From Octopus vulgaris (lineage: Eukaryota), in the NCBI GenBank assembly GCA_951406725.2, contig OX597831.1:36270001-36334000 (forward strand): DNA of 64,000 nucleotides. The letters run 5' to 3'. Within the stretch, counting starts at the first letter, position 1. Each line of letters begins with the position of its first letter. Under the pieces are notes generated by a model, which worked only from the letters and a program-made list of their open reading frames with translations, was not told the DNA's origin and ran no database searches. Position numbers and translations under genes: made by a program. Shown here piece after piece: positions 4,889 through 57,246 of this stretch.

Positions 4889-5755
4889 CTGTGTGTGTGT
4901 GTATAAGTGTGTGTAAGTGTGTAAGTGTTAATGCGTGTGTGTGCGTGCGTATGTGTGTGTTTATATATATACATTTATCTATATACCTATATATATTTAT
5001 GCTTGCTTATATATAGATATATATATATCTGTATGTGTGTGTGTTTTCTTATGTGTTCGTATATATACATATATGTGTGTGTGTGTGTGTGTCCGTTTTT
5101 ATGCCAGTGTGTGCGTGTTTATGCGTGTGTGTGTGTGTGTATACAGTACACATGTATGTACACGTGCCACGTACGTGTGCGTAAGTTATCTTTCTGAATC
5201 ATTATCACATATTTGAAATCATCGAAGGCGTCTCGTCATGCTGTTGAACAGAACACGTGACCGTATGAGCCACATAAAATAACAGCTATGAATAGGTGTT
5301 TGCAAAGCGCCTATAATTAATTGGATGAGCGGAATCTTGTAGAAGCTGAACATTTACTTAAGGCTCCAATATCAGAGATAAGCTCCTTCATTTCAGAGAC
5401 AAGGTCCTTCATTTCAGAGATTATCAGTAGCTCAGAGCTAGTTATGTTCGCTTGCTATATATTCTATAATCTCAGATTTATAAACTTATTAAAAAATGCA
5501 AGAAGCATTACATTAGCAGCCAATTTCTCGGGGCTTTATGTATCTCCTATAAAATTTTTTTTGTGCCATTGTTAAAGAAACTATATGCTATAAACCTCAG
5601 TGTATGTGCAGTAAATATGCACCCAAGTGATTCTTACGAGAAAGAGAAACAAATTTTTCTGTGGATCACTTCGTCATCATTAGCTCCGTAGTTCATTACA
5701 ATTTATAGAATGATTGTTAACCTTAAAAAAATAATGAAAGCTGAGATATACTAAA

Positions 5756-6022
5756 ATTGGGTTGGTACATAATTATTGCGGCTTTTTTTTCTTTTGTCAA
5801 TAAATTTTATTCAACAAAAACGATAACAAAATGTAACAAAAACGTTTTTAAATGATTATTCTGGAGCATATTCACCATCTACTTCAATTACTGCTTCCCA
5901 TTTGCTTGGCAGACAGTCAGACCGTCATTGAAAGATGATTTTGTTAAATATTGTTGTTGCTTTTCTTGAATAAAATTTGTTGAAAAAAAAAAAAAGCCGC
6001 AATAATTATGCACCAACCCAAT
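5756..6022. mobile_element. Mariner-derived MITE
   Basis: TIRs ATTGGGTTGGTACATAATTATTGCGGCTTTT / AAAAGCCGCAATAATTATGCACCAACCCAAT; internal minus-strand LPSKWEAVIEVDGEY, a mariner-type C-terminus. Confidence 0.85.
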
Positions 6023-6310
6023 TGTCTTTCTAAACCAATCTTATATAATAGAACTAACTAAATTTAAGCTATTCTCCAGCATTTCGATTCGTTTTTGTCT
6101 TTGAATAGCTGGCTATGCCCTACATGCCTCGGTGAAGAATGTGCTGCAGACACCCAAAGAAATTATACTTACCGAAGACCAGTGCCTTTGTCAAGGAGAT
6201 TCTCCTTTGCTATCAACTTAAATGTTGGTTCTTCGGAGGATGCAGGATGATAAAATTCAAAAGGAAATAATAAATATTACACGCTTAAATCAGTAAATCT
6301 AAGCATAGAC

Positions 6311-6560
6311 TTTTTACTTTCCTTTTACTTGTTTCAGTCGTACGACTGCGACCATACTAGAGCACCGCCTTAAAAAAGTTTTAGCGCAAGAAATCACCCC
6401 TTCGAGTTAAACTTTGTAAGTTCTTATTCTATCGGTCTCTTTTGCCGAACAGCTAAGTTACGGGTATGTAAACACACCAGCATCAGTTGTCAAGCGATTG
6501 GGGAGACACACACTCAGACAAAGAATCGCACACATAAATATATACATGTGTGTATGTATA
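6311..6560 (-). mobile_element. SINE family A, tail half
   Basis: GAGCACCGCC...TTATTCTATCGGTCTCTTTTGCCGAACAGCTAAGTTACG...GTTGTCAAGCG; ends in the microsatellite at the giant inverted repeat. Confidence 0.8.
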
Positions 6561-6592
6561 TATATATATATATATATTTATTATATAGAAGG

Positions 6593-6643
6593 AGCTTCTA
6601 CAGGACTAGTACTGTTTCATTCAAGAGAAATCTTCAGGAAGCT
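6593..6643 (-). ncRNA. Type-I hammerhead ribozyme (left arm copy)
   Basis: Reverse complement of 10921-10971. Confidence 0.75.
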
Positions 6644-6865
6644 ATTTAACAAGAATTGTATTAGCATTTATACATTTAGGCAGGTTTAAAGGAGTGGTGG
6701 TGGGGGACTTTTTTGGGGGTAGGCATAGCGCAAAATATCATACTTGGGGGAGTGGTCAAGGAGTCAGTGGTAAGTTAGATGAAAGAATAGATAAATAAAA
6801 AAAAAAATAAATAAAAAAATAAAAAAGTAAAAAAAAATAAATAAATAAATAAAAATATATATATA

Positions 6866-6897
<32 letters not shown>

Positions 6898-7012
6898 ATA
6901 TATATATAAAAAAAAAAAAAAAAAAAGGGGGGAATAGAGTTATAGGTAAATAAGGAGATTCTCACTTATACCTATACACATATGTATACGTATCTACACA
7001 CATATATATATA

Positions 7013-7058
<46 letters not shown>

Positions 7059-7502
7059 TATATACACATATACATACATATCTACATACACACATACATA
7101 CACCCGCCCACATATACAAATTTATACACATGCACATGCATATACCTGTCTACACATACACACACGTATATATGCATACACTCACTCCCATGCATGCACG
7201 CATACACACATGTATATATATACACACGACCACACATACATATATACACAGAAAAATATATATTCATACGCACATACACTCATGCACACACAACACACCT
7301 AGTTCCCTATATACACATATTTACACCTATATATACATACACCCACATACACATATGTACATATATATATATATATACATATATATACATATATATACAT
7401 ATACACGCATACATATATATACATGTGTGCACATACATACATATACACATATACATACACACACACATACACATGTGTACCTATACATACCTACACATAC
7501 AC

Positions 7503-7543
<41 letters not shown>

Positions 7544-7932
7544 CCAATACAGGCCCATTCCCTAATTTTAATTTTATTATCTTCATTTATTACTTTTGTT
7601 ATCTTTGATCGCTAGCTAAGGATCCTGGCTATGGCAGAATGTCCATTTGTCTGTCTACTAGAAGGCAAGTACTCATTCCCGCTCGCACACTCATTAGCAC
7701 GTACATTCACCCATTCGTACACTCATACACATACACGTACGCACGCGTTATATTCATACATACAAACATCTACATACGTTCACGTATATACACATACGTA
7801 CTCGTACCTACAGATTCGTGTCTACACTTTAGGAGGCTAGTCTATACATATACACCAATAAATATACATATATATATATATACACATATACATACACACA
7901 CACACATATATACTCCTACATACAGATACATA

Positions 7933-7980
<48 letters not shown>

Positions 7981-8190
7981 CATACACACACACACATATA
8001 TATACACACACATACATACACATATATATACATACACAAACATATATACACACATATATATATATATATATATACACACATACACACACACATACATACA
8101 TATACACACAAACACATACATACGTATACATACATACATACATCCATACATCCATACTTACATGCATTTATACGCATACACACACCCCCA

Positions 8191-8229
<39 letters not shown>

Positions 8230-8731
8230 TCACACATACATATACAAATATATGCACACACATATACATACATACACGTATACACATACACGCACATACA
8301 CATATACATGCGTACCCATACACGTGCACACACGCACGTGCATCCATATATATACACACACACACATATATATACACGTGTGCAAGCATACATACATACT
8401 CATACACGCACACATACTTACATATACATATATGCACACACTTACACACATATATATACATACACATATACATGCATACATACATATATGCATACATACA
8501 CATACACGCACATACACATATACATGCGTACCCATACACGTGCACACACGCACGCGCATCCATATATATACACACACACACATATATACACGTGTGCAAG
8601 CATACATACATACTCATACATGCACACATACTTACATATACATATATGCACACACTTACACACATATATACATACACATATACATGCATACATACATATA
8701 TGCATACATACACACACGCGCGCTCATATAC

Positions 8732-8766
<35 letters not shown>

Positions 8767-8778
8767 CATATATATATA

Positions 8779-8817
<39 letters not shown>

Positions 8818-8989
8818 ACATACATATACATACACACATACACATACATACACATACAACTACACACACACACATATATATATATATACACATATATACA
8901 CACATACACATACATATATACACATATACATACATATACATACACACACACATACATATATACATATACACTGATACACATACCCATAC

Positions 8990-9022
<33 letters not shown>

Positions 9023-9306
9023 TACACATGCATATACTTATATCTCTACATACTCACATATATGTATGTATGCATGTATATGTGTATGTATATATATGTG
9101 TGTAAGTGTGTGCATATATGTATATGTAAGTATGTGTGCGTGTATGAGTATGTATGTATGCTTGCACACGTGTATATATATGTGTGTGTGTGTATATATA
9201 TGGATGCACGTGCGTGTGTGCACGTGTATGGGTACGCATGTATATGTGTATGTGCGTCTATGTGTATACGTGTATGTATGTATATGTGTGTGCGTATATT
9301 TGTATA

Positions 9307-9350
<44 letters not shown>

Positions 9351-9446
9351 GATGGGGGTGTGTGTATGCGTATAAATGCATGTAAGTATGGATGTATGGA
9401 TGTATGTATGTATGTATACGTATGTATGTGTTTGTGTGTATATGTA

Positions 9447-9481
<35 letters not shown>

Positions 9482-9494
9482 ATATATATGTGTA

Positions 9495-9568
<74 letters not shown>

Positions 9569-9961
9569 GGTATGTATCTGTATGTAGGAGTATATATGTG
9601 TGTGTGTGTATGTATATGTGTATATATATATATATGTATATTTATTGGTGTATATGTATAGACTAGCCTCCTAAAGTGTAGACACGAATCTGTAGGTACG
9701 AGTACGTATGTGTATATACGTGAACGTATGTAGATGTTTGTATGTATGAATATAACGCGTGCGTACGTGTATGTGTATGAGTGTACGAATGGGTGAATGT
9801 ACGTGCTAATGAGTGTGCGTGCGGGAATGAGTACTTGCCTTCTAGTAGACAGACAAATGGACATGCTGCCATAGCCAGGATCCTTAGCTAGCGATCAAAG
9901 ATAACAAAAGTAATAAATGAAGATAATAAAATTAAAATTAGGGAATGGGCCTGTATTGGAT

Positions 9962-10009
<48 letters not shown>

Positions 10010-10453
10010 GTGTATGTGTAGGTATGTATAGGTACACATGTGTATGTGTGTGTGTATGTATATGTGTATATGTATGTATGTGCACACATGTATATATATG
10101 TATGCGTGTATATGTATATATATGTATATATATGTATATATATATATATATGTACATATGTGTATGTGGGTGTATGTATATATAGGTGTAAATATGTGTA
10201 TATAGGGAACTAGGTGTGTTGTGTGTGCATGAGTGTATGTGCGTATGAATATATATTTTTCTGTGTATATATGTATGTGTGGTCGTGTGTATATATATAC
10301 ATGTGTGTATGCGTGCATGCATGGGAGTGAGTGTATGCATATATACGTGTGTGTATGTGTAGACAGGTATATGCATGTGCATGTGTATAAATTTGTATAT
10401 GTGAGCGGGTGTATGTATGTGTGTATGTAGATATGTATGTATATGTGTATATA

Positions 10454-10501
<48 letters not shown>

Positions 10502-10605
10502 TATATATATATGTGTAGATACGTATAGATATGTGTATAGGTATAAGTGAGAATCTCCTTATTTACCTATAACTCTATCCCTTTTTTTTTTTTTTTTATA
10601 TATAT

Positions 10606-10645
<40 letters not shown>

Positions 10646-10920
10646 TATATATATTTTTTTATATATATATATATATATATTTTTATATATATATATTTTT
10701 TTATTTATTTATTTTTTTATTTTTTTTTATTTTTTTTTTTTTATTTTTTTATTTTTTTATTTTTTTATTTATCTATTCTTTCATCTAACTTACCACTGAC
10801 TCCTTGACCACTCCCCCAAGTATGATATTTTGCGCTATGCCTACCCCCAAAAAAAGTCCCCCACCACCACTCCTTTAAACCTGCCTAAATGTATAAATGC
10901 TAATACAATTCTTGTTAATT

Positions 10921-10971
10921 AGCTTCCTGAAGATTTCTCTTGAATGAAACAGTACTAGTCCTGTAGAAGCT
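10921..10971 (+). ncRNA. Type-I hammerhead ribozyme
   Basis: AGCTTC-CTGAAGA-tTTC tctt GAAt-GAAA-CAGtACTAGTcCTG-TA-GAAGCT: 6 bp stem I, CUGANGA and GAAA boxes, near-palindromic stem III, GUA site (cut after 10965). Stem II is weak. Confidence 0.75.
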
Positions 10972-11055
10972 CCTTCTATATAATAAATTAATTTTACTCT
11001 GCTATGTATTGAGTACCTTACTTACTGTGGTTAACCCCGAATCAACCCGGGACCT

Positions 11056-11105
<50 letters not shown>

Positions 11106-11164
11106 AAAAAATGAAGTTCGAAAATGCTGCTGTATTATACAATTTTTAATTTTTATATATACAT

Positions 11165-11205
11165 TATAACATGTTTCAGTTCCTGAAATGAACCTTATCA
11201 AAAAA
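11165..11205 (-). ncRNA. Decayed hammerhead motif in Penelope 3' region
   Basis: Minus strand TTGATAA-GGTTC atttcag GAACT-GAAA-CATG-TT; stem I is poor. Confidence 0.45.
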
Positions 11206-11580
11206 AGTTATATATAAAAAAAGACAGCTCATGCCGTCAAACACAAGAAATTCATTTATAATACACAACGGAGTCAGACATCTTAGAGTTCATGTATAGT
11301 TGATATATAGTTCATGTATAGTTGATATATAGTTTGAAGTATATGTTCAAAGTGTTCGATGCAGTGGCCCACGGTGGCGATACGTATTCAATACAAAAAA
11401 CAGATCAAAGTGGTGGAAAGCGGTCAATACAGAAGATTGATGTTTCCGAAAGAGCGAGGAATTCATTTTTACCTTAAGCAATTGTGATGACCCATGGTGG
11501 ATGTTCGCTGGGTGGATCTAGTGAATTTTGTGAAGTGCTCGGTTTTATAATGCCTGTTAGGTGGTCAATCCAGCGTAGCG

Positions 11581-11915
11581 TGACGTCGTCAACGTTTTGA
11601 CCAATCGTTTCGTTAGGTGGCTTTATTCAAGCAGAACGGGACGTCATCATCATTTTGACCAATCGCTGCATTATAACTGCCTCTTGTTTGTTTCCTGTTT
11701 TGACCAGTCGCTTCGTTAGTGAAGCAGAACGGGACGTCATCCAGATTCTGCCCAATCACGACTTATAGCTACATTAGATCTGCCCCCTGTCTGTACTTGT
11801 TAGGTGACTAGTCAAGCAGAAAAGGACGTCATCAATATTCTGACTAATGACTGTCCCCTGTTTGTATCCTGTCCATTCTAGCAGAGCTAGACGTCATCAA
11901 CTTGTTGACCAATCA
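11581..11915 (+). promoter_or_regulatory. Five GACGTC(A)...CCAATC modules (CRE-like plus CCAAT box) with fixed spacing
   Basis: GACGTC at 11582, 11640, 11733, 11825 and 11890; CCAAT (CTAAT in copy 4) starts exactly 19 nt later each time. Confidence 0.65.
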
Positions 11916-12082
11916 GAATCGGGTCTGACCCTTAGCTGTATCGTATGTATCAGGGTCAGATTTGCACGAAAGAATTTTTTTCCTTTTTTACTAAGGCATA
12001 TTTCCGTCAGAGCGAGTGTCTGTTTAAAGTAGCGGCCGTGGTGGAATTTTGCTTCTCCTTTTCGGAGGACTTATCTTTTGTT

Positions 12083-12659
12083 TTAGTATTCCTGGCCCAG
12101 GGTGTTTAAACTTGGTCTAAATTTTTTTATGAAATATGGTTCTTTATTTTGGCGTTGTGTGAAGGTTGCGTTGTCACTGAATTTATAGAGCGGGTTAGTT
12201 GTAAATTTCGGATTTACATTTCCAGCACATCTATCTGTGTGTCCGCTGACCGGTATTTTGCGGTAATCAGGGTTTCTAATTTGTGATTTATGCACCGCCA
12301 TCCTGTTACGTAAGCTATTTTTTGTATGGCCTATATACTGCCTATTGCAGCCTGCGCATGTTATGACGTAAATTAAGTTTTCTGATGCGCAGGTGAAGTT
12401 TGTTCTAATGGTGAACTGGTGGCCTTGTTCCAGTATAAATTCTGATCCTTCTTTCAAGATGACACAGATTCCGCAGTTGGGCCTTCCACTTTTTCTAACT
12501 GCTGGTTTTGTGGTTGATGTTGAGTGCAGTGTAGCTTGGGAAAATCCTTTTCAAGGATTTTGGTTGCCGTTTACTTTTAATGATGGTGTGTGTTTCGAGG
12601 ATCCGGTTCATCTTTGGGTCTCCCTTTAGTAGGGTTGTGCTTTGTAGTATGGTGTTGAA

Positions 12660-12660
<1 letters not shown>
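12083..12660 (-). pseudogene. Penelope-like GIY-YIG endonuclease domain fragment
   Basis: NLIYVITCAGCNRQYIGHT..LRNRMAVH..E.YFIKKFRPSLN, preceded by the Zn-linker-like GRPNCGIC; frameshifted upstream and no RT present. Confidence 0.9.
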
Positions 12661-12704
<44 letters not shown>

Positions 12705-12711
<7 letters not shown>

Positions 12712-13265
12712 TAAATTAGAGACAAAACCACTATAATGCAAATCAAACAAAGAAAGACTTAAGCCAATACATAAAATAATTTAGAGTTTATTATAAGTAA
12801 ATTTTTATTTAGATTATATAGATTATTTATATCTTAAAAATATTGATTATATATATATATATATATATTATATTAAATTAGAGACAAAACCACTATAATG
12901 CAAATCAAACAAAGAAAGACTTAAGCCAATACATAAAATAATTTAGAGTTTATTATAAGTAAATTTTTATTTAGATTATATAGATTATTTATATCTTAAA
13001 AATATTGATTATATTTTAGGTTTTGAAACCACCTGAAGAATGTCTCATAGAAGTCCTGACACGAAACGATCGTAGTGGTTATTTTAATTAAATTTAATTT
13101 ATATAAATTATTTTATGTATTGGCTTAAGTCTTTCTTTGTTTGATTTGCATTATAGTGGTTTTGTCTCTAATTTAATATAATATAATATTTTACTATAAA
13201 ATTGGATTCAATCCTAAAGCTGATTTTTCCCTGTAAATTTGAATTTATTCCCTAATATTTATTAT

Positions 13266-13268
<3 letters not shown>
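12705..13268 (+). mobile_element. Inverted/tandem pLTR-like element carrying a hammerhead
   Basis: 161 bp-period direct duplication (about 12705-12851 and 12866-13012); its first ~85 bp recur inverted at about 13103-13187; (TA)n flanks. Confidence 0.8.
13027..13080 (+). ncRNA. Type-I hammerhead ribozyme
   Basis: AACCAC-CTGAAGA-aTGTC...GACAc-GAAA-CGATCG-TA-GTGGTT: 6 bp stem I, palindromic stem III, GUA site (cut after 13074); A-C mismatch at the base of stem II. Confidence 0.8.
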
Positions 13269-13308
<40 letters not shown>

Positions 13309-25954: not shown

Positions 25955-26629
25955 ATACACACATATATATATCTTCACATTAATGTACACACGCACACAC
26001 CCACGCGGACACACACACATGTATATATGTATGTATATATATATACACATACACACAGGCACACATACATATACATCTATTTGAATGTGTTGTAATCACT
26101 TTTCACACAGCCGATATAGTAGCCATTCGGACCGGGAGGACTTTCACCATTATTTAGTCTGATTCCAGCTTTTATTTGTTGTACTTTTATTTTATTTTTA
26201 CTTTATTTTTCCTATTATCATCTAGAATGTTCCGAAAAGATTTTCATTTTACTCCAGAGAATAATATTCTATAGGTTGTGTGCGTATCTGAGCGTGTAGG
26301 CTAAATGCCCAGGTAAATATACAACTGTGAACTTTTGCAGTAGATTTTGTCAAAAACAATCTATTCGCACCACTCACTCATTCATTTTTCTTTTCAATTT
26401 GTCTTTCTCTTTCGCTCTTTGTCTGTCTGTCTGTCTGTCCATATGTCTGTTTGTCGGTCTCTCCTCCCCATCTCTCTCTCTTTCTTCCTCTTTACTGCTT
26501 CTCTCTCATTGTTTTTTTTTTATTTTGTTTTGTTTTCCTTCTTGTGTGTTGCTAACATTTCCGCTGTTTGTTAATTCATTTTTTTTATAATGTCCAATAT
26601 TTGAGATGCATTATTTAAAGGACAATACC

Positions 26630-26676
26630 TACTACTACTACTACAACTTCTACTATTACTACTGCTGCTGCTGCTG

Positions 26677-26724
<48 letters not shown>

Positions 26725-26725
26725 T

Positions 26726-26756
<31 letters not shown>

Positions 26757-26823
26757 GCTGCTGCTGCCACTACTACTATTACTACTACTACTACTACTAA
26801 TATTACTACTACTATTACTACTG

Positions 26824-26858
<35 letters not shown>

Positions 26859-26859
26859 G

Positions 26860-26915
<56 letters not shown>

Positions 26916-27243
26916 GCTGCTGCTGATGCTGCTGCCAACACTACCACTGCCAATAACAACAACAACAGCATCATCAGCAAAAAGGGCGATAGTGACAATG
27001 CTCGTTTACAAGAATCTAACAAACAATATATAATGTCGACTGACAATTTCAAGAAGAACAACGACAATAACAACAACAACAACAACTACAACTACAACAG
27101 CAGAAAAATAAATCAACATTAACAATACCAACAACATCGACGACAATCGCAACGGTAATACCGACAATGATAATGTAGACAAGAATACGACCAGCCACCA
27201 CTACCACCAACACCCCCTCCCACTACTACTACTACTACTACTA

Positions 27244-27282
<39 letters not shown>

Positions 27283-27327
27283 ACAACAACAACAACAAAA
27301 TCAGCACCACCACCACCATCACCACTG

Positions 27328-27424
<97 letters not shown>

Positions 27425-27425
27425 C

Positions 27426-27501
<76 letters not shown>

Positions 27502-27530
27502 ACAACAAAACAACAACAACAACAAAATCA
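26630..27530. repeat. (ACT)n/(ACC)n/(AAC)n trinucleotide cluster
   Basis: Long CTA runs interrupted by CTG, CCA and CAA. Confidence 0.95.
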
Positions 27531-27946
27531 GCAACAAATACAAGAATATTTTGTCAGATTCGAGAAGAACAATGACTGCAGCGCCACCAGCACCATCCTT
27601 CTTCACTGGTGACAATGCTACTTTCATAGGATTTACATAACTCAATATTCGCTTGCTATTCCATGACTGTTTCGTATACTATATTTTTGTTTGTTTGTTT
27701 GTTTTTTCGTTTAAATTCTTACATATTCACTGCGGAGTTTGCTGCATACAAATGCACAAATGCTCACGCCTACATAGAGACAACACAGACACAGACACAG
27801 ACATACGAATATAGAAACATATACATAGATATACATGTGAACAACTATGCGTGTATGCACACACACACACATATATATAAATATATATATAAATAAATAC
27901 GTACAAATATAAGTATACTTTGTATACCTGCATAAATATAAATATT

Positions 27947-27981
<35 letters not shown>

Positions 27982-28054
27982 ATATATATACATACATATA
28001 TATAAATATATATATATATATACATATAAATACATGTATATGTGTATATATAAA

Positions 28055-28108
<54 letters not shown>

Positions 28109-28253
28109 CATATATATATATATATAAATACATATATATATATAAACATATATAGATATATAAATATATATATATAAATACAGATATAGATATATAAATA
28201 TATATATATAAATACACACACACACATACACACACACACACGCACACACACAT

Positions 28254-28288
<35 letters not shown>

Positions 28289-28571
28289 ATAAAGTCACAC
28301 AAACATGTGTATGCGTGTCAATGAATAAATAGGAGTATTGTAAATGGTACGAAAACAGATTGAACTCCGTTTGTTTGGAAGTTGGTCAGAAAAGAAAAAG
28401 ATATGATATAGATCTACGCCATTATCAAGCGACAACCTGTGCACATATGGAAAGATAAAGGAGATAAAGTGAGACTGAGATATTCGTTTCCCATCTGTGT
28501 CTTGTCTAACAATGTATCGGATTTAAAAGAAAATGAATTTTCTCATTTATTGAGGTGGCGGCAGCAGTAAT

Positions 28572-29218
28572 ATAGTAGTAGTAGTAGTAATAGTAGTAGT
28601 AGTAGTAGTGGTAGTAGTAGTAGTAGTAGTAGTAGTGGCAGTAGTAGTAGTAGTAGTAGTAGTAGCAGCAGCAGCAGCAGCAGTAGTAGTAATAGCAGTA
28701 GTAGTAGTAGTAGCAGCAGTAGTAGTAATTGTAGTAGTAGTAGCAATAGTAGTAATTGTAGCAGCAGTAGTAGTAGAAGCAGCAGTAGTAGTAGTAACAA
28801 CAGTAGTAGTAATTGTAGTAGTAGCAGCAGTAGTAGTAGTAGTAGTAGTAATTGTAGTAGTAGTAGTAGTAGCAGCAGTAGTAGTAATTGTAGTAGTAGT
28901 AGCAATAGTAGTAATTGTAGCAGCAGTAGTAGTAGAAGCAGCAGTAGTAGTAGTAACAACAGTAGTAGTAATTGTAGTAGTAGCAGCAGTAGTAGTAGTA
29001 GTAGTAATTGTAGTAGCAGTAGCAGTAGTAGTAATAGCAGTAGTAGTAGTAGAAACAGTAGTAGTAGCAGCAGTAGTAGTAGTAGTAGTGGTAGTTGTAG
29101 TAATTGTAGTAGTAGTAGCAGCAGCAGTAGTAGTAGTAGTAACAGTAGTAGAAGTAACTGTAGTAGTAGTAGCAGTAGTAGTAGTAGTAATTGTAGTAGC
29201 AATAGCAGTAGCAGCAGC

Positions 29219-29274
<56 letters not shown>
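28572..29274. repeat. Degenerate (AGT)n array with internal 159 bp-period duplication
   Basis: The interruption pattern at 28712-28860 repeats at 28871-29016. Confidence 0.9.
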
Positions 29275-37784: not shown

Positions 37785-38724
37785 ACCCCCTTCCTCCTCC
37801 ACCTCGGATCTTTCCAGGAAGTCCCTAACTTCCTCCTCGAACTTTTCTAGGAAGAGATTCCTCCCCTTCCTCTACCTCCTCCTCTTACACCCCATCTTCG
37901 GAACATTCCAGGAAGTCCTTCCTTCCAATCCTCCCTTTCCAACACCACCTCAGAACATTCCAGGAAGTCCCTACCCACTCCTCGGACTTTTCCGGGAAGT
38001 TCCTACCATCTCATCGGAACATTTCAAGAAGTATTTCCTCACCCTTCTTCCTTTCCTCCCTTCCACAGAACTTTCTAGGAAGTCGCTACACTCCTCCGCG
38101 GACTTTTCCAGGAAGTCATTACTCCTCCTCCCCTTCATCTTCCTCGGAACTTACCATGAATTCCTTCCTACCCCTCCTCCCCTTCCTCGGAACTTTCCAG
38201 AAAGTCCCTACACACATCTTCGGAACTTTCCAAGAAGTCCTTCTTCCCCACGCATAAGAAATTTAGGTAGAAGCTAGATATATGTCCGACCTTGTGCAGA
38301 GGTCCCCTCGGAACTTTCCTTGAAGTCCATCTCCTCCTCTCCTCCCATCCCCATCCCCTCCACCCCTTTCTCCCTACTCGGAACTTTCCAGGAAGTCCTT
38401 CCTCCTTCTCTCCTTCCTCCCATACTCAGAACTTTCCTGGAAGTCCTTCCTTTCCCTCTTCCCATCTTACCTCCCTTTCCCTTCCTCCCCTCCTCGGTAC
38501 TTTCCAGGAAGTGTTTCTTTCCCGCCCTCCTCCCCGTCCCCTTATTCCTCTTCTCCTCCTCGGAACTCTATAAGAAATCCCTTCACCTCCTCTGACTTTC
38601 CCAGGAAGTCCTCTCATTCCTCCCCTCTTCCCCTTCTGCCAATCCTCGGAACTTTCCAGGAACTCCCAGGAAATCCCTATCCCCTCTTCGGAACTTTTCA
38701 GGAAGTCCTTCCTTCTCCTCCCAT
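37785..38724. repeat. Array of about 20 conserved 22-mers (CTCGGAACTTTCCAGGAAGTCC) with variable C/T-rich spacers
   Basis: Cores at about 37803, 37836, 37897, 37949, 37981, 38013, 38064, 38097, 38143, 38186, 38219, 38307, 38377, 38425, 38493, 38559, 38591, 38645 and 38687. Confidence 0.9.
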
Positions 38725-38725
38725 T

Positions 38726-39421
38726 GGATCTACTTCTAGCATAAGGGTTGTCCACACAGTGGTCATCTCTCTCATATGTATGTAATACGATTTACTGAAC
38801 CTTCAGATTTTAATATGCTAGACCACTGGTTTTAAATTGATGTTAATCAAATTAATATCCAATTTTTCACCCTCAATTTAAATTTAAATTAATAGTTCTC
38901 TAACCGGCAAACGCTACTGTAGTGAATTATTTCCTGCAGTCTTATTTCCGGGAATATAGTGCGCCGAAAGGAGGACTTTTGAAAAATAACCACAAGTGTA
39001 ATAGGTAGAACTAGATATATGTCCGACCTTGTGCAGAGGTCCCGTGTATAGTTCTGCAATTTATATTTGTATTGACGATCATACTGAAGATCTACGGACA
39101 AATTGCGTAAGTAAAATTACGTAATCTGTTGATAGTGAAACATGTTTGTGATTAATCTTTATTTTTGTTACTTTTCTTTTGTCTTGCTCGCTTACGTTCT
39201 GCTGTTTGCTAAATTTTCTTGAGAACATTTCTTAGTGGTAAGACCATATCGGATCTACTTCTAGCATAAAGGTTGTCCATATAGTGGTCATCCTTCTCAT
39301 ATGTATGTAATACAATTTATTGAAACTTCAGATTTTAATATGCTAGACCACTGGTTTTAAATTGATGTTAATTTAATTAATTATATAATTAATGATTATC
39401 CAATTTTCACCCACATTTTAA

Positions 39422-39426
<5 letters not shown>
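38726..39426 (+). mobile_element. 1.3 copies of a 525 bp HHR-bearing unit (retrozyme or pLTR-like)
   Basis: 38726-38886 repeats at 39251-39426; homologous to 56088-57170. Confidence 0.8.
39077..39153 (+). ncRNA. Type-I hammerhead with long stem II
   Basis: GATCATA-CTGAAGA-tCTA..TTGCGTAA..TTACGTAA..TAGt-GAAA-CATG-TT-TGTGATT: 7 bp stem I and palindromic stem III. Confidence 0.7.
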
Positions 39427-39492
<66 letters not shown>

Positions 39493-48190: not shown

Positions 48191-48636
<446 letters not shown>

Positions 48637-48690
48637 ATCGTTCCACCACTGCTTATATCTCTCTGAGATATTTAGAAATTTAATATTCCT

Positions 48691-49846: not shown

Positions 49847-49935
<89 letters not shown>

Positions 49936-49940
<5 letters not shown>

Positions 49941-51095
49941 TGTGACAGAAAGGACGGACGTTTTGAAAGGGACATTACTCAGCCCCAGTGGGAGGGACAT
50001 ATGTCCAATAGGTACCATTCAATCCGTGGTGTCTTTGCATTTTTTGTGTCTTTTTTGTCAGGTAAAGCCATGGCCCTGTGGGCGATAGAGCATCGCGCGT
50101 TTGCTTACGACAGTTACATGAAGAATAACGAGTCTCTCACAGTAGTTCAGTGTGAATTTCGGCGTCACTTCAACAATCACCGAAGACAAGATGTTCCCAC
50201 CCATAACACAATCTTACGTTGAGTGAATGCACTTCGTACACGAAATACACTAATGAATAGGAGACTGGCGGGGGTCGCTACGAACGGTACGCATACCGGA
50301 GAATGTGGAACGCGTCAGACAAGCTTTGATACAGAGTCTGAATCGCTCTGCCTTGAGGCATTCCACTGAACTCGGCATCGGTAATCGATCGATGAGGCGT
50401 ATTTTGCACGAATAAGAAATTCCCACTCGTACAAATTGATAATCGGGCAACTGTTTAAACCTTGGGATTATGCACAGCGGCTTAGCATCGCACATCAGTC
50501 GGAAGCAATTTTTGAGACAGATGCCAACTTCATTTTATTAATGAGTGGAATGGTGAATAAACAGAACTGTCGTTATTGGACTCTTGAAAATTCGAGAGAA
50601 CTGCAAGAAAGACTACTGTACAGACTTCATATTTCTTTTTTTTTTTTTAAATTTATTTATCAGAAATAATTAAATTAGTAGGAAATATATGTAGTCTCTT
50701 GTCTGGCAGCGATAGAACCCATTCGATTTAAGCCAAATTAGAATACACTGCTTTACCCAACTGATTTGTCGATATGTGGTTATTTGTGGGGAAACCTCAA
50801 GGCACGTGTATATGCGCATAAGCCCCGTACATTGGACGATTTGAAGGAAGCTATTCGCGTGGAAGTCGGCCAAATCGATAGAGCAATGCTGGAGAGAGTC
50901 GAGGCCAACTTCTAAGAACGCCTTCAGAAATGTATCAATGAAAACGGACACTACAGGATAGAGGTTTTCCACACTTGAGTTTGACAAATGCTACTTCAAT
51001 ACAAACACATTGATGTCAATAAAATTTGTTTGCTGATAAAATTAATGATTTCGTGAACTTTTCAAATAGGTCTGTCTTCCTCTGCCACACCCTGC
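49936..51095 (+). mobile_element. Decayed Tc1/mariner transposon (DUF4817-type N-terminus) with internal deletion
   Basis: MALWAIEHRAFAYDSY..VQCEFRRHF; VRIPENVERVRQA; VNKQNCRYW; LWGNLKARVYAHKPRTLDDLKEAIR; degenerate TIRs at about 49936-49968 and 51060-51095. Confidence 0.85.
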
Positions 51096-55737: not shown

Positions 55738-56362
55738 ACACACGCACACACGCACACACACACAGATACACACACACACAGATATATATGGAAAATGAAA
55801 GACGGAAGATGGAATATGCGAGAATTTATTATTAAATACGACAATTGTTTCAACACATCTAGCATCGATTCCTTATTGGTGGGGCACTCAACAACTGGTT
55901 CAGAAGCATTCGGCGGTGCAGATGTATCTTTTCAGGTGATAAATAGATACAACTCGCTAAAATGACTGTTCCGCAAGGTAACTTTCCGTTTTGCAGAAAG
56001 AAAAGCAGTCAAATACATAACGATCACTGTGAAAGTGCCCGAGCTTGACCAGTAAACTATCGTGTAAACCGTTCGTTTTATATATATGCTAGGCTACTGG
56101 TTTTAAATTGACTTTAATTAAATTAATTAAATTGATATTCAATTTATCTCCCCATTATTTAAATTTTAAAATCATTATGTTCTCTAATTGGCAACATTAA
56201 CTGCAGTAAATTATCTACTACAGAACTGTTTCCGGAATTTAGCGCGCCAGAGCTTTGACATTTGAAAGTAACCCCATTGTAATCGGTAGAACTAAGCAAT
56301 GTCTATTTTTATATGGACAACTTGTGTTTGTTTAGTTTTTCAAATTATATTGATTTTGGAAC

Positions 56363-56438
56363 GATCGTACTGACGAGTCTGCGGACGAAGGGTTACGTAA
56401 GTAATTTATTCGGTAATAGACGAAATCGGTATACGATT
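56363..56438 (+). ncRNA. Type-I hammerhead ribozyme with canonical core
   Basis: GATCGTA-CTGACGA-GTCTG...TAGAC-GAAA-TCGG-TA-TACGATT: 7 bp stem I, G-C closed stem II, GUA site (cut after 56431). Confidence 0.85.
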
Positions 56439-56841
56439 AATTCTTGAATTTTATATAATTTTCATCTGTCTTGCCCGCGTATGTTCTGGTGTTCGCTGAA
56501 TTTTCTCTGGAGAACATTTTCTCTTTGTAGTTAGATCGTATTTGATCTTCTTCTGGCGTATTGGTTATCCACCTAGTGGTTTATCCCTAGATATACACAT
56601 GTATGTATATAGGTGTTAAATTAATGGTATTATTAAATTAATATCAATTTTTCACCCTCATTTATAAATTTATAAATTTAATTATGCGGCAGTAAATATT
56701 TTATTTGATGCAGCATACGTTTCCAATGAGTCTTAGCATGCTTTTCGCGGGGAATTTGAGGCATAACTAAAAATGCAATTGGTTAAACCGCACGTGTATT
56801 TGACGCTCGTGTTGGTCTAATAAATTGTATTTAAGACAAAC

Positions 56842-56914
56842 CTCTTCTGATGATTTATAGATGTCTATGTAAGTAAAATTGCATTTACATTAGTAATGAA
56901 ACAATTGTTCAGGG
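56842..56914 (+). ncRNA. Partly decayed type-I hammerhead
   Basis: CTCTt-CTGATGA-tTTA...TAAt-GAAA-CAATTG-TT-cAGGG; palindromic stem III, weak stems I and II. Confidence 0.6.
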
Positions 56915-57164
56915 TCAATCTATTTATTCGTTATATTTCACTTTCCTTCCGTTAAATGTAATGTTATTTCTAGTTGGAAACATCGTTTCTGTGGCTATAC
57001 TATCGGAGCTATTTTTAGCACTAGAGCTATCCACATAGTGGTAAATCTCTAATAATTTATATATAAATTTGTATTTTCTCCCTAGTTTTTTTGTGCTAAG
57101 CCACTAGGTGTTAAGTTAATGGTACTATTAAATTAATATCAATTTTTCACCCTCATTTATAAAT

Positions 57165-57246
<82 letters not shown>

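Follow-up and report, generated by a model that had tools for sequence, protein, structure and literature searches.

How does a genome come to contain two nearly identical arms, each almost 2 kb long and facing the other in inverted orientation, with a hammerhead ribozyme motif at each outer end, and what might become of an RNA that is read through them? Such a fold-back lies within a 64-kb stretch of Octopus vulgaris DNA, called the window throughout, and had been described in an earlier note.

Arms, middle and inner junction of the fold-back

The fold-back at 6576–10988 is a real inverted repeat. In the arm alignment, 6576–8490 (1915 bp) pairs inverted with 9057–10988 (1932 bp), which confirms the arms of ~1.9 kb given in the earlier note and makes the structure one base wider at each end. 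The 1865 aligned positions contain 40 mismatches, mostly inside (TA)n(CA)n blocks, together with 14 gap blocks; when the simple-repeat blocks are set aside, the divergence is 8 substitutions in 1214 positions (0.66%), including the 7638/9865 difference that had been quoted. The arms therefore differ in microsatellite length and in a few bases, much as described.

6576–9056, minus strand: inverted copy without a tail, including the ‘spacer’ as extra 5′ sequence (arm alignment, strand composition, recurrent family end)
9057–11059, plus strand: 5′-truncated copy with tail, 2003 bp (arm alignment)
7540–7860, minus strand: island B, non-simple sequence, 99.4% identical to 9643–9963 (within-window comparison)
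8491–9056, minus strand: the 566 bp that stay unpaired; CA-rich, as is the left arm, with 143 C and 21 G (alignment, composition)
8210–8721, no strand: 216 bp tandem repeat, 2.4 copies (tandem-repeat analysis)
9057–9064, no strand: head-to-head junction at the palindrome CATATATG (sequence)

The share of simple sequence, defined as alternating purine–pyrimidine or A/T-only runs, is ~65% in each arm and 93% in the 566 bp middle, against 19% for the window as a whole; the description of the arms as mostly simple sequence with islands thus holds by composition. There is no second full copy of island B in the 64-kb window beyond the two arms. The many differences with T on the left and G on the right might reflect A-to-I editing of the template that became fixed. 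We discarded this idea, since these differences fall within (TA)n(CA)n blocks and A>G is not favoured among the 8 substitutions found elsewhere (one is A>G on the plus strand of the right arm, and two are the reverse). The divergence of 0.66% would correspond to roughly a million years if a published calibration (a distance of 0.09 at 25 million years; PMC13282606) applies here, and to less if errors of reverse transcription or assembly contributed.

A spacer of ~565 bp had been placed between the arms. The unpaired 566 bp are there, but not as a separate spacer. They carry the C/A strand bias of the left arm and start with the second unit of the 216 bp tandem repeat, whose units are 91% alike and whose first unit matches the right arm with one mismatch in 234 bp; this argues that the middle belongs to the left copy, of which it is most likely extra 5′ sequence.

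Ends, tail and flanks

The mirror identity stops at the element ends and does not extend into the left or the right flank.

6310–6575, plus strand: the flank on the left, a half-length dispersed SINE-like repeat with (TA)n at its end (matched 7 more times in the window at E ≤ 1e-7, with 71–82% identity)
10982–10987, plus strand: AATAAA directly preceding the short family end at 10988 (sequence, run mapping)
10989–11059, plus strand: one-sided tail, 71 bp (arm alignment, run mapping)
11060–11101, no strand: (TA)21, the right-hand target repeat (tandem-repeat analysis)

The 3′ end of the left copy, at 6576, is the counterpart of 10988 and lies just after AATAAA, and the right copy continues to 11059, so that the ~70 bp continuation noticed earlier measures 71 bp. 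There are thus two preferred 3′ ends, 71 bp apart, and a 3′ tail on one side only. The ends are asymmetric in the arm alignment, that is, they are not flush terminal inverted repeats. Both element ends adjoin (TA)n, within which a target duplication is unreadable, and in other contigs (AT)n follows 10988. The half repeat with its (TA)n at 6310–6575 is likely to have been the insertion target. The predicted fold of the tail is no better than that of shuffles (z −1.6). Further to the left of the fold-back, 5755–5778 and 6000–6023 form a MITE-like inverted pair of 24 bp, 96% alike and ~220 bp apart.

The hammerhead motifs

10921–10971, plus strand: type I hammerhead motif (strict descriptor, folding)
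6593–6643, minus strand: type I hammerhead motif with the same sequence as its right-hand counterpart and predicted cleavage 3′ of 6599 (alignment, strict descriptor)

The two motifs, reported earlier as identical, are so, and both face outward; the nearest difference between the arms is at 6645/10919. The right motif consists of a 6 bp stem I, CUGAAGA, a 3 bp stem II, GAAA and a stem III with the palindromic loop ACUAGU, and thus has the core CUGANGA/GAAA/UH together with stem I; the UA cleavage site is predicted after 10965. It lies on the sense strand, 94 nt from the long end and 23 nt from the short end, as in the Penelope-type layout. With a strict type I descriptor, the 64-kb window yields 5 motifs, and each of 100 block-wise dinucleotide shuffles yields none. 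Rfam returned no match at the gathering score and no hammerhead among 16 weak hits; the weak miRNA hits lie on (TA)n and were dismissed as noise, as were the matches of a bacterial promoter scan, which is not relevant here and stayed at chance level.

Within the family described below, N7 is the one core position that varies at 5% or more in the mapped runs, and few positions vary anywhere. The pair G10.1–C11.1 is absent: U10934 and U10945 flank the 3 bp stem II, and no family variant is listed there. In folding predictions the monomer has a hammerhead fold of −7.8 kcal/mol against −9.9 for a rival fold, and stems I and III are 13–18% populated; a double hammerhead, joined through the palindromic loop III, is predicted at −29.4 kcal/mol, against about −7.5 per monomer. 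Minimal hammerheads are reported to cleave poorly and mainly as dimers, and G10.1–C11.1 to be highly conserved (PMC4209133). The motif is likely a weak, dimer- or protein-dependent 3′-end motif of the element.

The 3′ end in public sequencing runs

Of the 24 sequencing runs listed, all of them available as contigs and none recorded as RNA, 20 (from 9 studies and under 3 organism labels) share 64% or more of the words sampled from 10775–11600. Four of the 24, here X1 to X4, were mapped at 85% likeness on 10775–11600, with 11055–11110 uncovered since repeats are skipped. X1, X2 and X3 are of DNA type, X1 possibly being the source of the window itself and X2 and X3 belonging to other studies; X4 is taken as RNA by guess alone and comes without matched DNA.

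Contigs on 10775–11600 number 12324 in X1, 2770 in X2 and 2346 in X3, counts that include a neighbouring repeat and in which depth does not equal copy number. A single variant letter is carried by up to 124 separate contigs, which identifies the hammerhead end as that of a diverse, many-copy family. The 3′ 285 bp (10775–11059) belongs to this family, and its outer island (island A) is multi-copy there, not single-copy; dispersal in many copies applies to the mapped stretch 10775–11054. Exact-pattern searches returned no locus for the hammerhead in metagenome and viral contigs and none for island B in metagenome contigs, collections in which animal DNA is not expected and which are uninformative on copy number.

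The family contigs run through the tail to ~11054. Others leave exactly at 10988 into (AT)n, 19 in X1, 12 in X2 and 12 in X3; exits at this position in all three DNA-type runs mark the end of the left arm as a recurrent end of the family. The locus's own left junction may be among these loose ends; in X2 and X3 the majority continuation differs from the left flank here. At 10871, 10901 and 10954 both arms carry the rarer of the family's letters, the other letter accounting for 62–76%, 57–65% and 72–92% of depth, and this sharing fits one source copy. Some family copies diverge upstream of 10846. In X1, one contig has a tandem joint from 10982 to 10921 (62 bp), and in 19 contigs stem I at 10921 is immediately preceded by half a hammerhead in inverted orientation; these are very short head-to-head forms of the family.

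No contig in the runs mapped (10775–11600; contigs only) bridges (TA)21 or any junction of the fold-back, and the locus is therefore without independent confirmation. This, together with the unequal simple-repeat blocks of the two arms, would fit an inversion that is an artefact, either a fold-back chimera in reading or a mis-join in simple sequence. We regard an artefact as very improbable. The mirror in a fold-back read would include the flank, whereas here it ends with the element; both ends match ends in other contigs, the exits from 10988 into (AT)n in three runs agreeing with the left arm; and the inner join leaves 566 bp unpaired.

The same data bear on a fold-back DNA transposon or large MITE, in which long terminal inverted repeats happen to contain a hammerhead-like motif. 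Such elements are suggested by long inverted arms rich in simple repeats, but the 71 bp on one side leave the ends not flush, the middle continues one arm, the hammerhead core is complete and of a kind that shuffled sequence did not yield, and the family also has tandem and very short inverted forms. This reading is scarcely credible.

Neighbouring elements

Immediately to the right of (TA)21 lies a 5′-truncated Penelope-like copy (11101–12662, minus strand), with a GIY-YIG frame after a cysteine linker and then a 3′ region of ~1 kb with repeated GACGTCA and CCAAT motifs; we take it to be of a Neptune-like clade. The part at 12104–12662 (minus strand) is the C-terminal part of an RT–GIY-YIG protein (Pfam GIY-YIG, E 9e-7), its product is 49–60% identical to residues 468–653 of P0001, and it is cut at a (TA)n run. 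The 3′ region of this copy differs from that of the fold-back and has no match to the islands, and we do not count it as the partner. A possible minimal hammerhead lies at 11150–11195 (minus strand), with the U3–A8 core UUGAUAA and a poor stem I, and is maybe decayed; the U3–A8 core variant has been reported in Schistosoma (PMC4209133).

Two further elements, unrelated to the fold-back, have the same inverted-plus-tail layout in miniature. That at 12663–13305 has (TA)n ends, a hammerhead motif at 13033 (plus strand), arms of 82 bp (12702–12783 and 13104–13185) and a tail of ~80 bp beyond the right arm; its left part is tandemly duplicated with a period of 162 bp. That at 48306–48690 has arms of 91 bp (48306–48396 and 48542–48632, 93% alike), a minimal hammerhead at 48436 with a palindromic loop III and a tail of ~58 bp. 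We conclude from the GIY-YIG fragment and these neighbours that Penelope-like enzymes have been active here and that such insertions are common in this genome.

The window holds other repeats. One family has type I hammerheads with a long stem II (39084 and 56370); its copies at 38723–39429 and 56084–57170 are ~70% alike, with direct partial repeats that resemble pseudo-LTRs. At 26610–29274, (CTA)n/(ACT)n arrays face a (TAG)n array ~1.6 kb away as an inverted simple-repeat arrangement, and 37788–38725 is a pyrimidine-rich array in which the units are degenerate and built around a TTTCCAGGAAGT-like motif. A weak DUF4817 helix-turn-helix match (49854–50222, plus strand, E 0.004) is probably a fragment of a DNA transposon.

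Origin of the inverted pair

The fold-back consists of two 5′-truncated copies of a many-copy, non-coding hammerhead repeat, placed head to head so that the 3′ end of each points out into (TA)n. We consider it probable that both arose in one insertion by a Penelope-like RT/GIY-YIG endonuclease supplied in trans. The earlier note had likened the structure to Penelope-like elements (PLEs), and both hallmarks of that likeness are present, namely an inverted 5′-truncated copy adjoining at the 5′ end and a one-sided tail. These are typical of PLEs (PMC8969392), in which such a copy at the 5′ end, a one-sided tail of 30–40 bp and microsatellite targets are standard (PMC8557442). When purified, a Penelope-like protein cleaves AT-rich DNA on both strands and extends them, and it initiates reverse transcription at two sites between which the tail lies (PMC11167929).

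A Penelope-like protein acting in trans would have nicked both strands of a (TA)n run, and each nick would have primed a cDNA on RNA of one source copy. With one cDNA begun from 11059 (the long end) and its counterpart from 10988 (the short end), a 71 bp tail would be left on one side. The cDNAs would have halted after about 2.0 and 2.5 kb and been joined at the CATATATG palindrome, and microsatellite slippage with a few point changes would later have made the arms diverge.

The enzyme would have come from elsewhere. Inside 6576–11059 there is no remnant of a reverse transcriptase or endonuclease, only low-complexity frames, and tblastn with P0001, a relative of 659 aa, gave only E ≥ 1.8; the element therefore lacks the RT plus GIY-YIG frame of an autonomous Penelope-like element and is not classed as one. 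No autonomous partner with the same 3′ end was found, and with neither remnant nor partner the mobilising family is one that we infer. A partial tandem copy (pseudo-LTR), published as frequent and not obligatory, is absent at the locus.

The inverted pair might instead have formed at the DNA level, if an ordinary copy inserted first and break repair or a replication template switch at CATATATG later duplicated part of it in reverse. The palindromic junction and the highly repetitive interior would suit such an event, which would equally give minority alleles common to both arms. We nevertheless think it quite unlikely, because the duplicate stops exactly at an end that the family uses repeatedly elsewhere, because the copy without a tail is the longer one on the 5′ side, and because the layout recurs in two other families within 64 kb.

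Two independent insertions of one young subfamily, adjacent and in opposite directions, are a distinctly improbable origin. The site looks like a hotspot, since next to it come the GIY-YIG fragment at 12104–12662 and a further hammerhead element, both with (TA)n at their boundaries, and the arms do differ at 8 of 1214 positions. On the other hand, the inner junction contains neither a pure (TA)n run nor spare DNA, the interior is 99.3% identical, and one arm is tailed and the other tail-less, as in the published layout of a single event (PMC8557442). A single Penelope-type insertion thus remains our preferred account.

RNA folding and trimming

The earlier note had proposed that a transcript would fold into ~1.9 kb of dsRNA and be trimmed at its 3′ end by the ribozyme. 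As the geometry of a read-through RNA, the first part would hold. Trimming is doubtful on the predictions, with stems I and III as weakly populated as given above and U–U in place of G10.1–C11.1. In read-through RNA, moreover, the motif faces its own antisense, with which a duplex of −124 kcal/mol over 75 nt is predicted against −7.8 for the hammerhead fold, and trimming is therefore unlikely unless folding and cutting come first. We believe that the long hairpin is likely a by-product of insertion and not a selected device.

If transcribed, the hairpin would be a good ADAR substrate, by analogy with the young repeats that are the main editing targets in animals (PMC9989829). In X4, A>G changes at 10893, 10957 and 10968 reach 5–9% of depth (in 2, 5 and 4 contigs respectively), against <0.1% in X1 to X3. 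They are the only three substitutions peculiar to X4 in the family part, and two of them sit in loop III and stem I of the hammerhead. It is possible that they reflect A-to-I editing of family transcripts, which would not be specific to the fold-back locus; alleles could explain them as well.

Comparison with known systems

The endonuclease-bearing PLEs (Penelope/Poseidon, Neptune, Nematis and Hydra; PMC8557442) have the same inverted 5′-truncated copy at the 5′ end, so that inverted repeats surround the unit, and are alike in the one-sided tail, in the hammerhead near the 3′ end and in a (TA)n target without readable duplication. The fold-back differs from them in having no RT–endonuclease frame within 2.0–2.5 kb of the 3′ end and no partial tandem, in an interior that is about two-thirds compound microsatellite, and in a tail about twice as long as theirs. 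With the Anolis Poseidon element PAc it has in common two 3′ ends that bound the tail and an AT-rich target, and PAc uses both strands, which would give an inverted pair as in the fold-back (PMC11167929). The frame of PAc, however, starts inside the hammerhead, whereas no coding frame follows the motif here; and the PAc hammerhead cleaved only with protein and was dispensable for insertion (PMC11167929).

The motifs resemble the minimal type I hammerheads of metazoan PLEs in the intact core, the 6 bp stem I, the palindromic loop III for which dimers are predicted and the pairing on opposite strands (PMC4209133). They depart from these in a 3 bp stem II with U–U and without G10.1–C11.1, and lie 4.3 kb apart, unlike the opposite-strand pairs of minimal hammerheads in Schistosoma, which are 100–700 bp apart (PMC4209133). 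Non-LTR retrozymes (bioRxiv 10.64898/2026.07.22.740005) are likewise non-coding, have a type I hammerhead and are proposed to rely on Penelope-like enzymes; they are head-to-tail tandem units, each with a hammerhead, whereas the fold-back is head-to-head and kilobases long. At its locus we do not find the two or more head-to-tail hammerhead units by which retrozymes are recognized.

We found no description of the fold-back's repeat family in the literature searched; Repbase and Dfam lay outside the search, and the supplements of PMC8557442, PMC4209133 and PMC13282606 may include the family. In the published repeat annotation of Octopus vulgaris, the main text does not contain the word ‘ribozyme’ (PMC13282606).

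Discussion

The layout of this locus is already known and its mechanism ordinary; only its size and its microsatellite-rich interior are unusual. Since inverted-plus-tail insertions have been described, the locus itself changes little, and because host DNA carried by Penelope-like elements is on record (PMC6431247), a captured interior would not be new either.

On the account preferred here, the fold-back would nevertheless be a clean natural example of the use of both RT start sites in one insertion, on opposite strands. In vitro work has suggested that both strands are used in this way and, in the account given there, the use is not traced to inverted copies (PMC11167929). With three such insertions, from three families, within 64 kb, the genome should contain many junctions at which the formation of inverted copies by Penelope-type insertion can be tested.

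A more far-reaching reading, which we think unlikely, takes the microsatellite-rich interior for the real body of a family that is non-coding, Penelope-dependent, present in many copies and at least 2.5 kb long. Routine inverted insertion would then seed kilobase-long, near-perfect hairpins and compound microsatellites genome-wide, and A-to-I editing at loop III and stem I (10957 and 10968) would tune dimer cleavage and hence mobility. If the interior is indeed the family body, it would link one non-coding retroelement to the very high microsatellite load of this genome and to part of the dsRNA that serves as its editing substrate.
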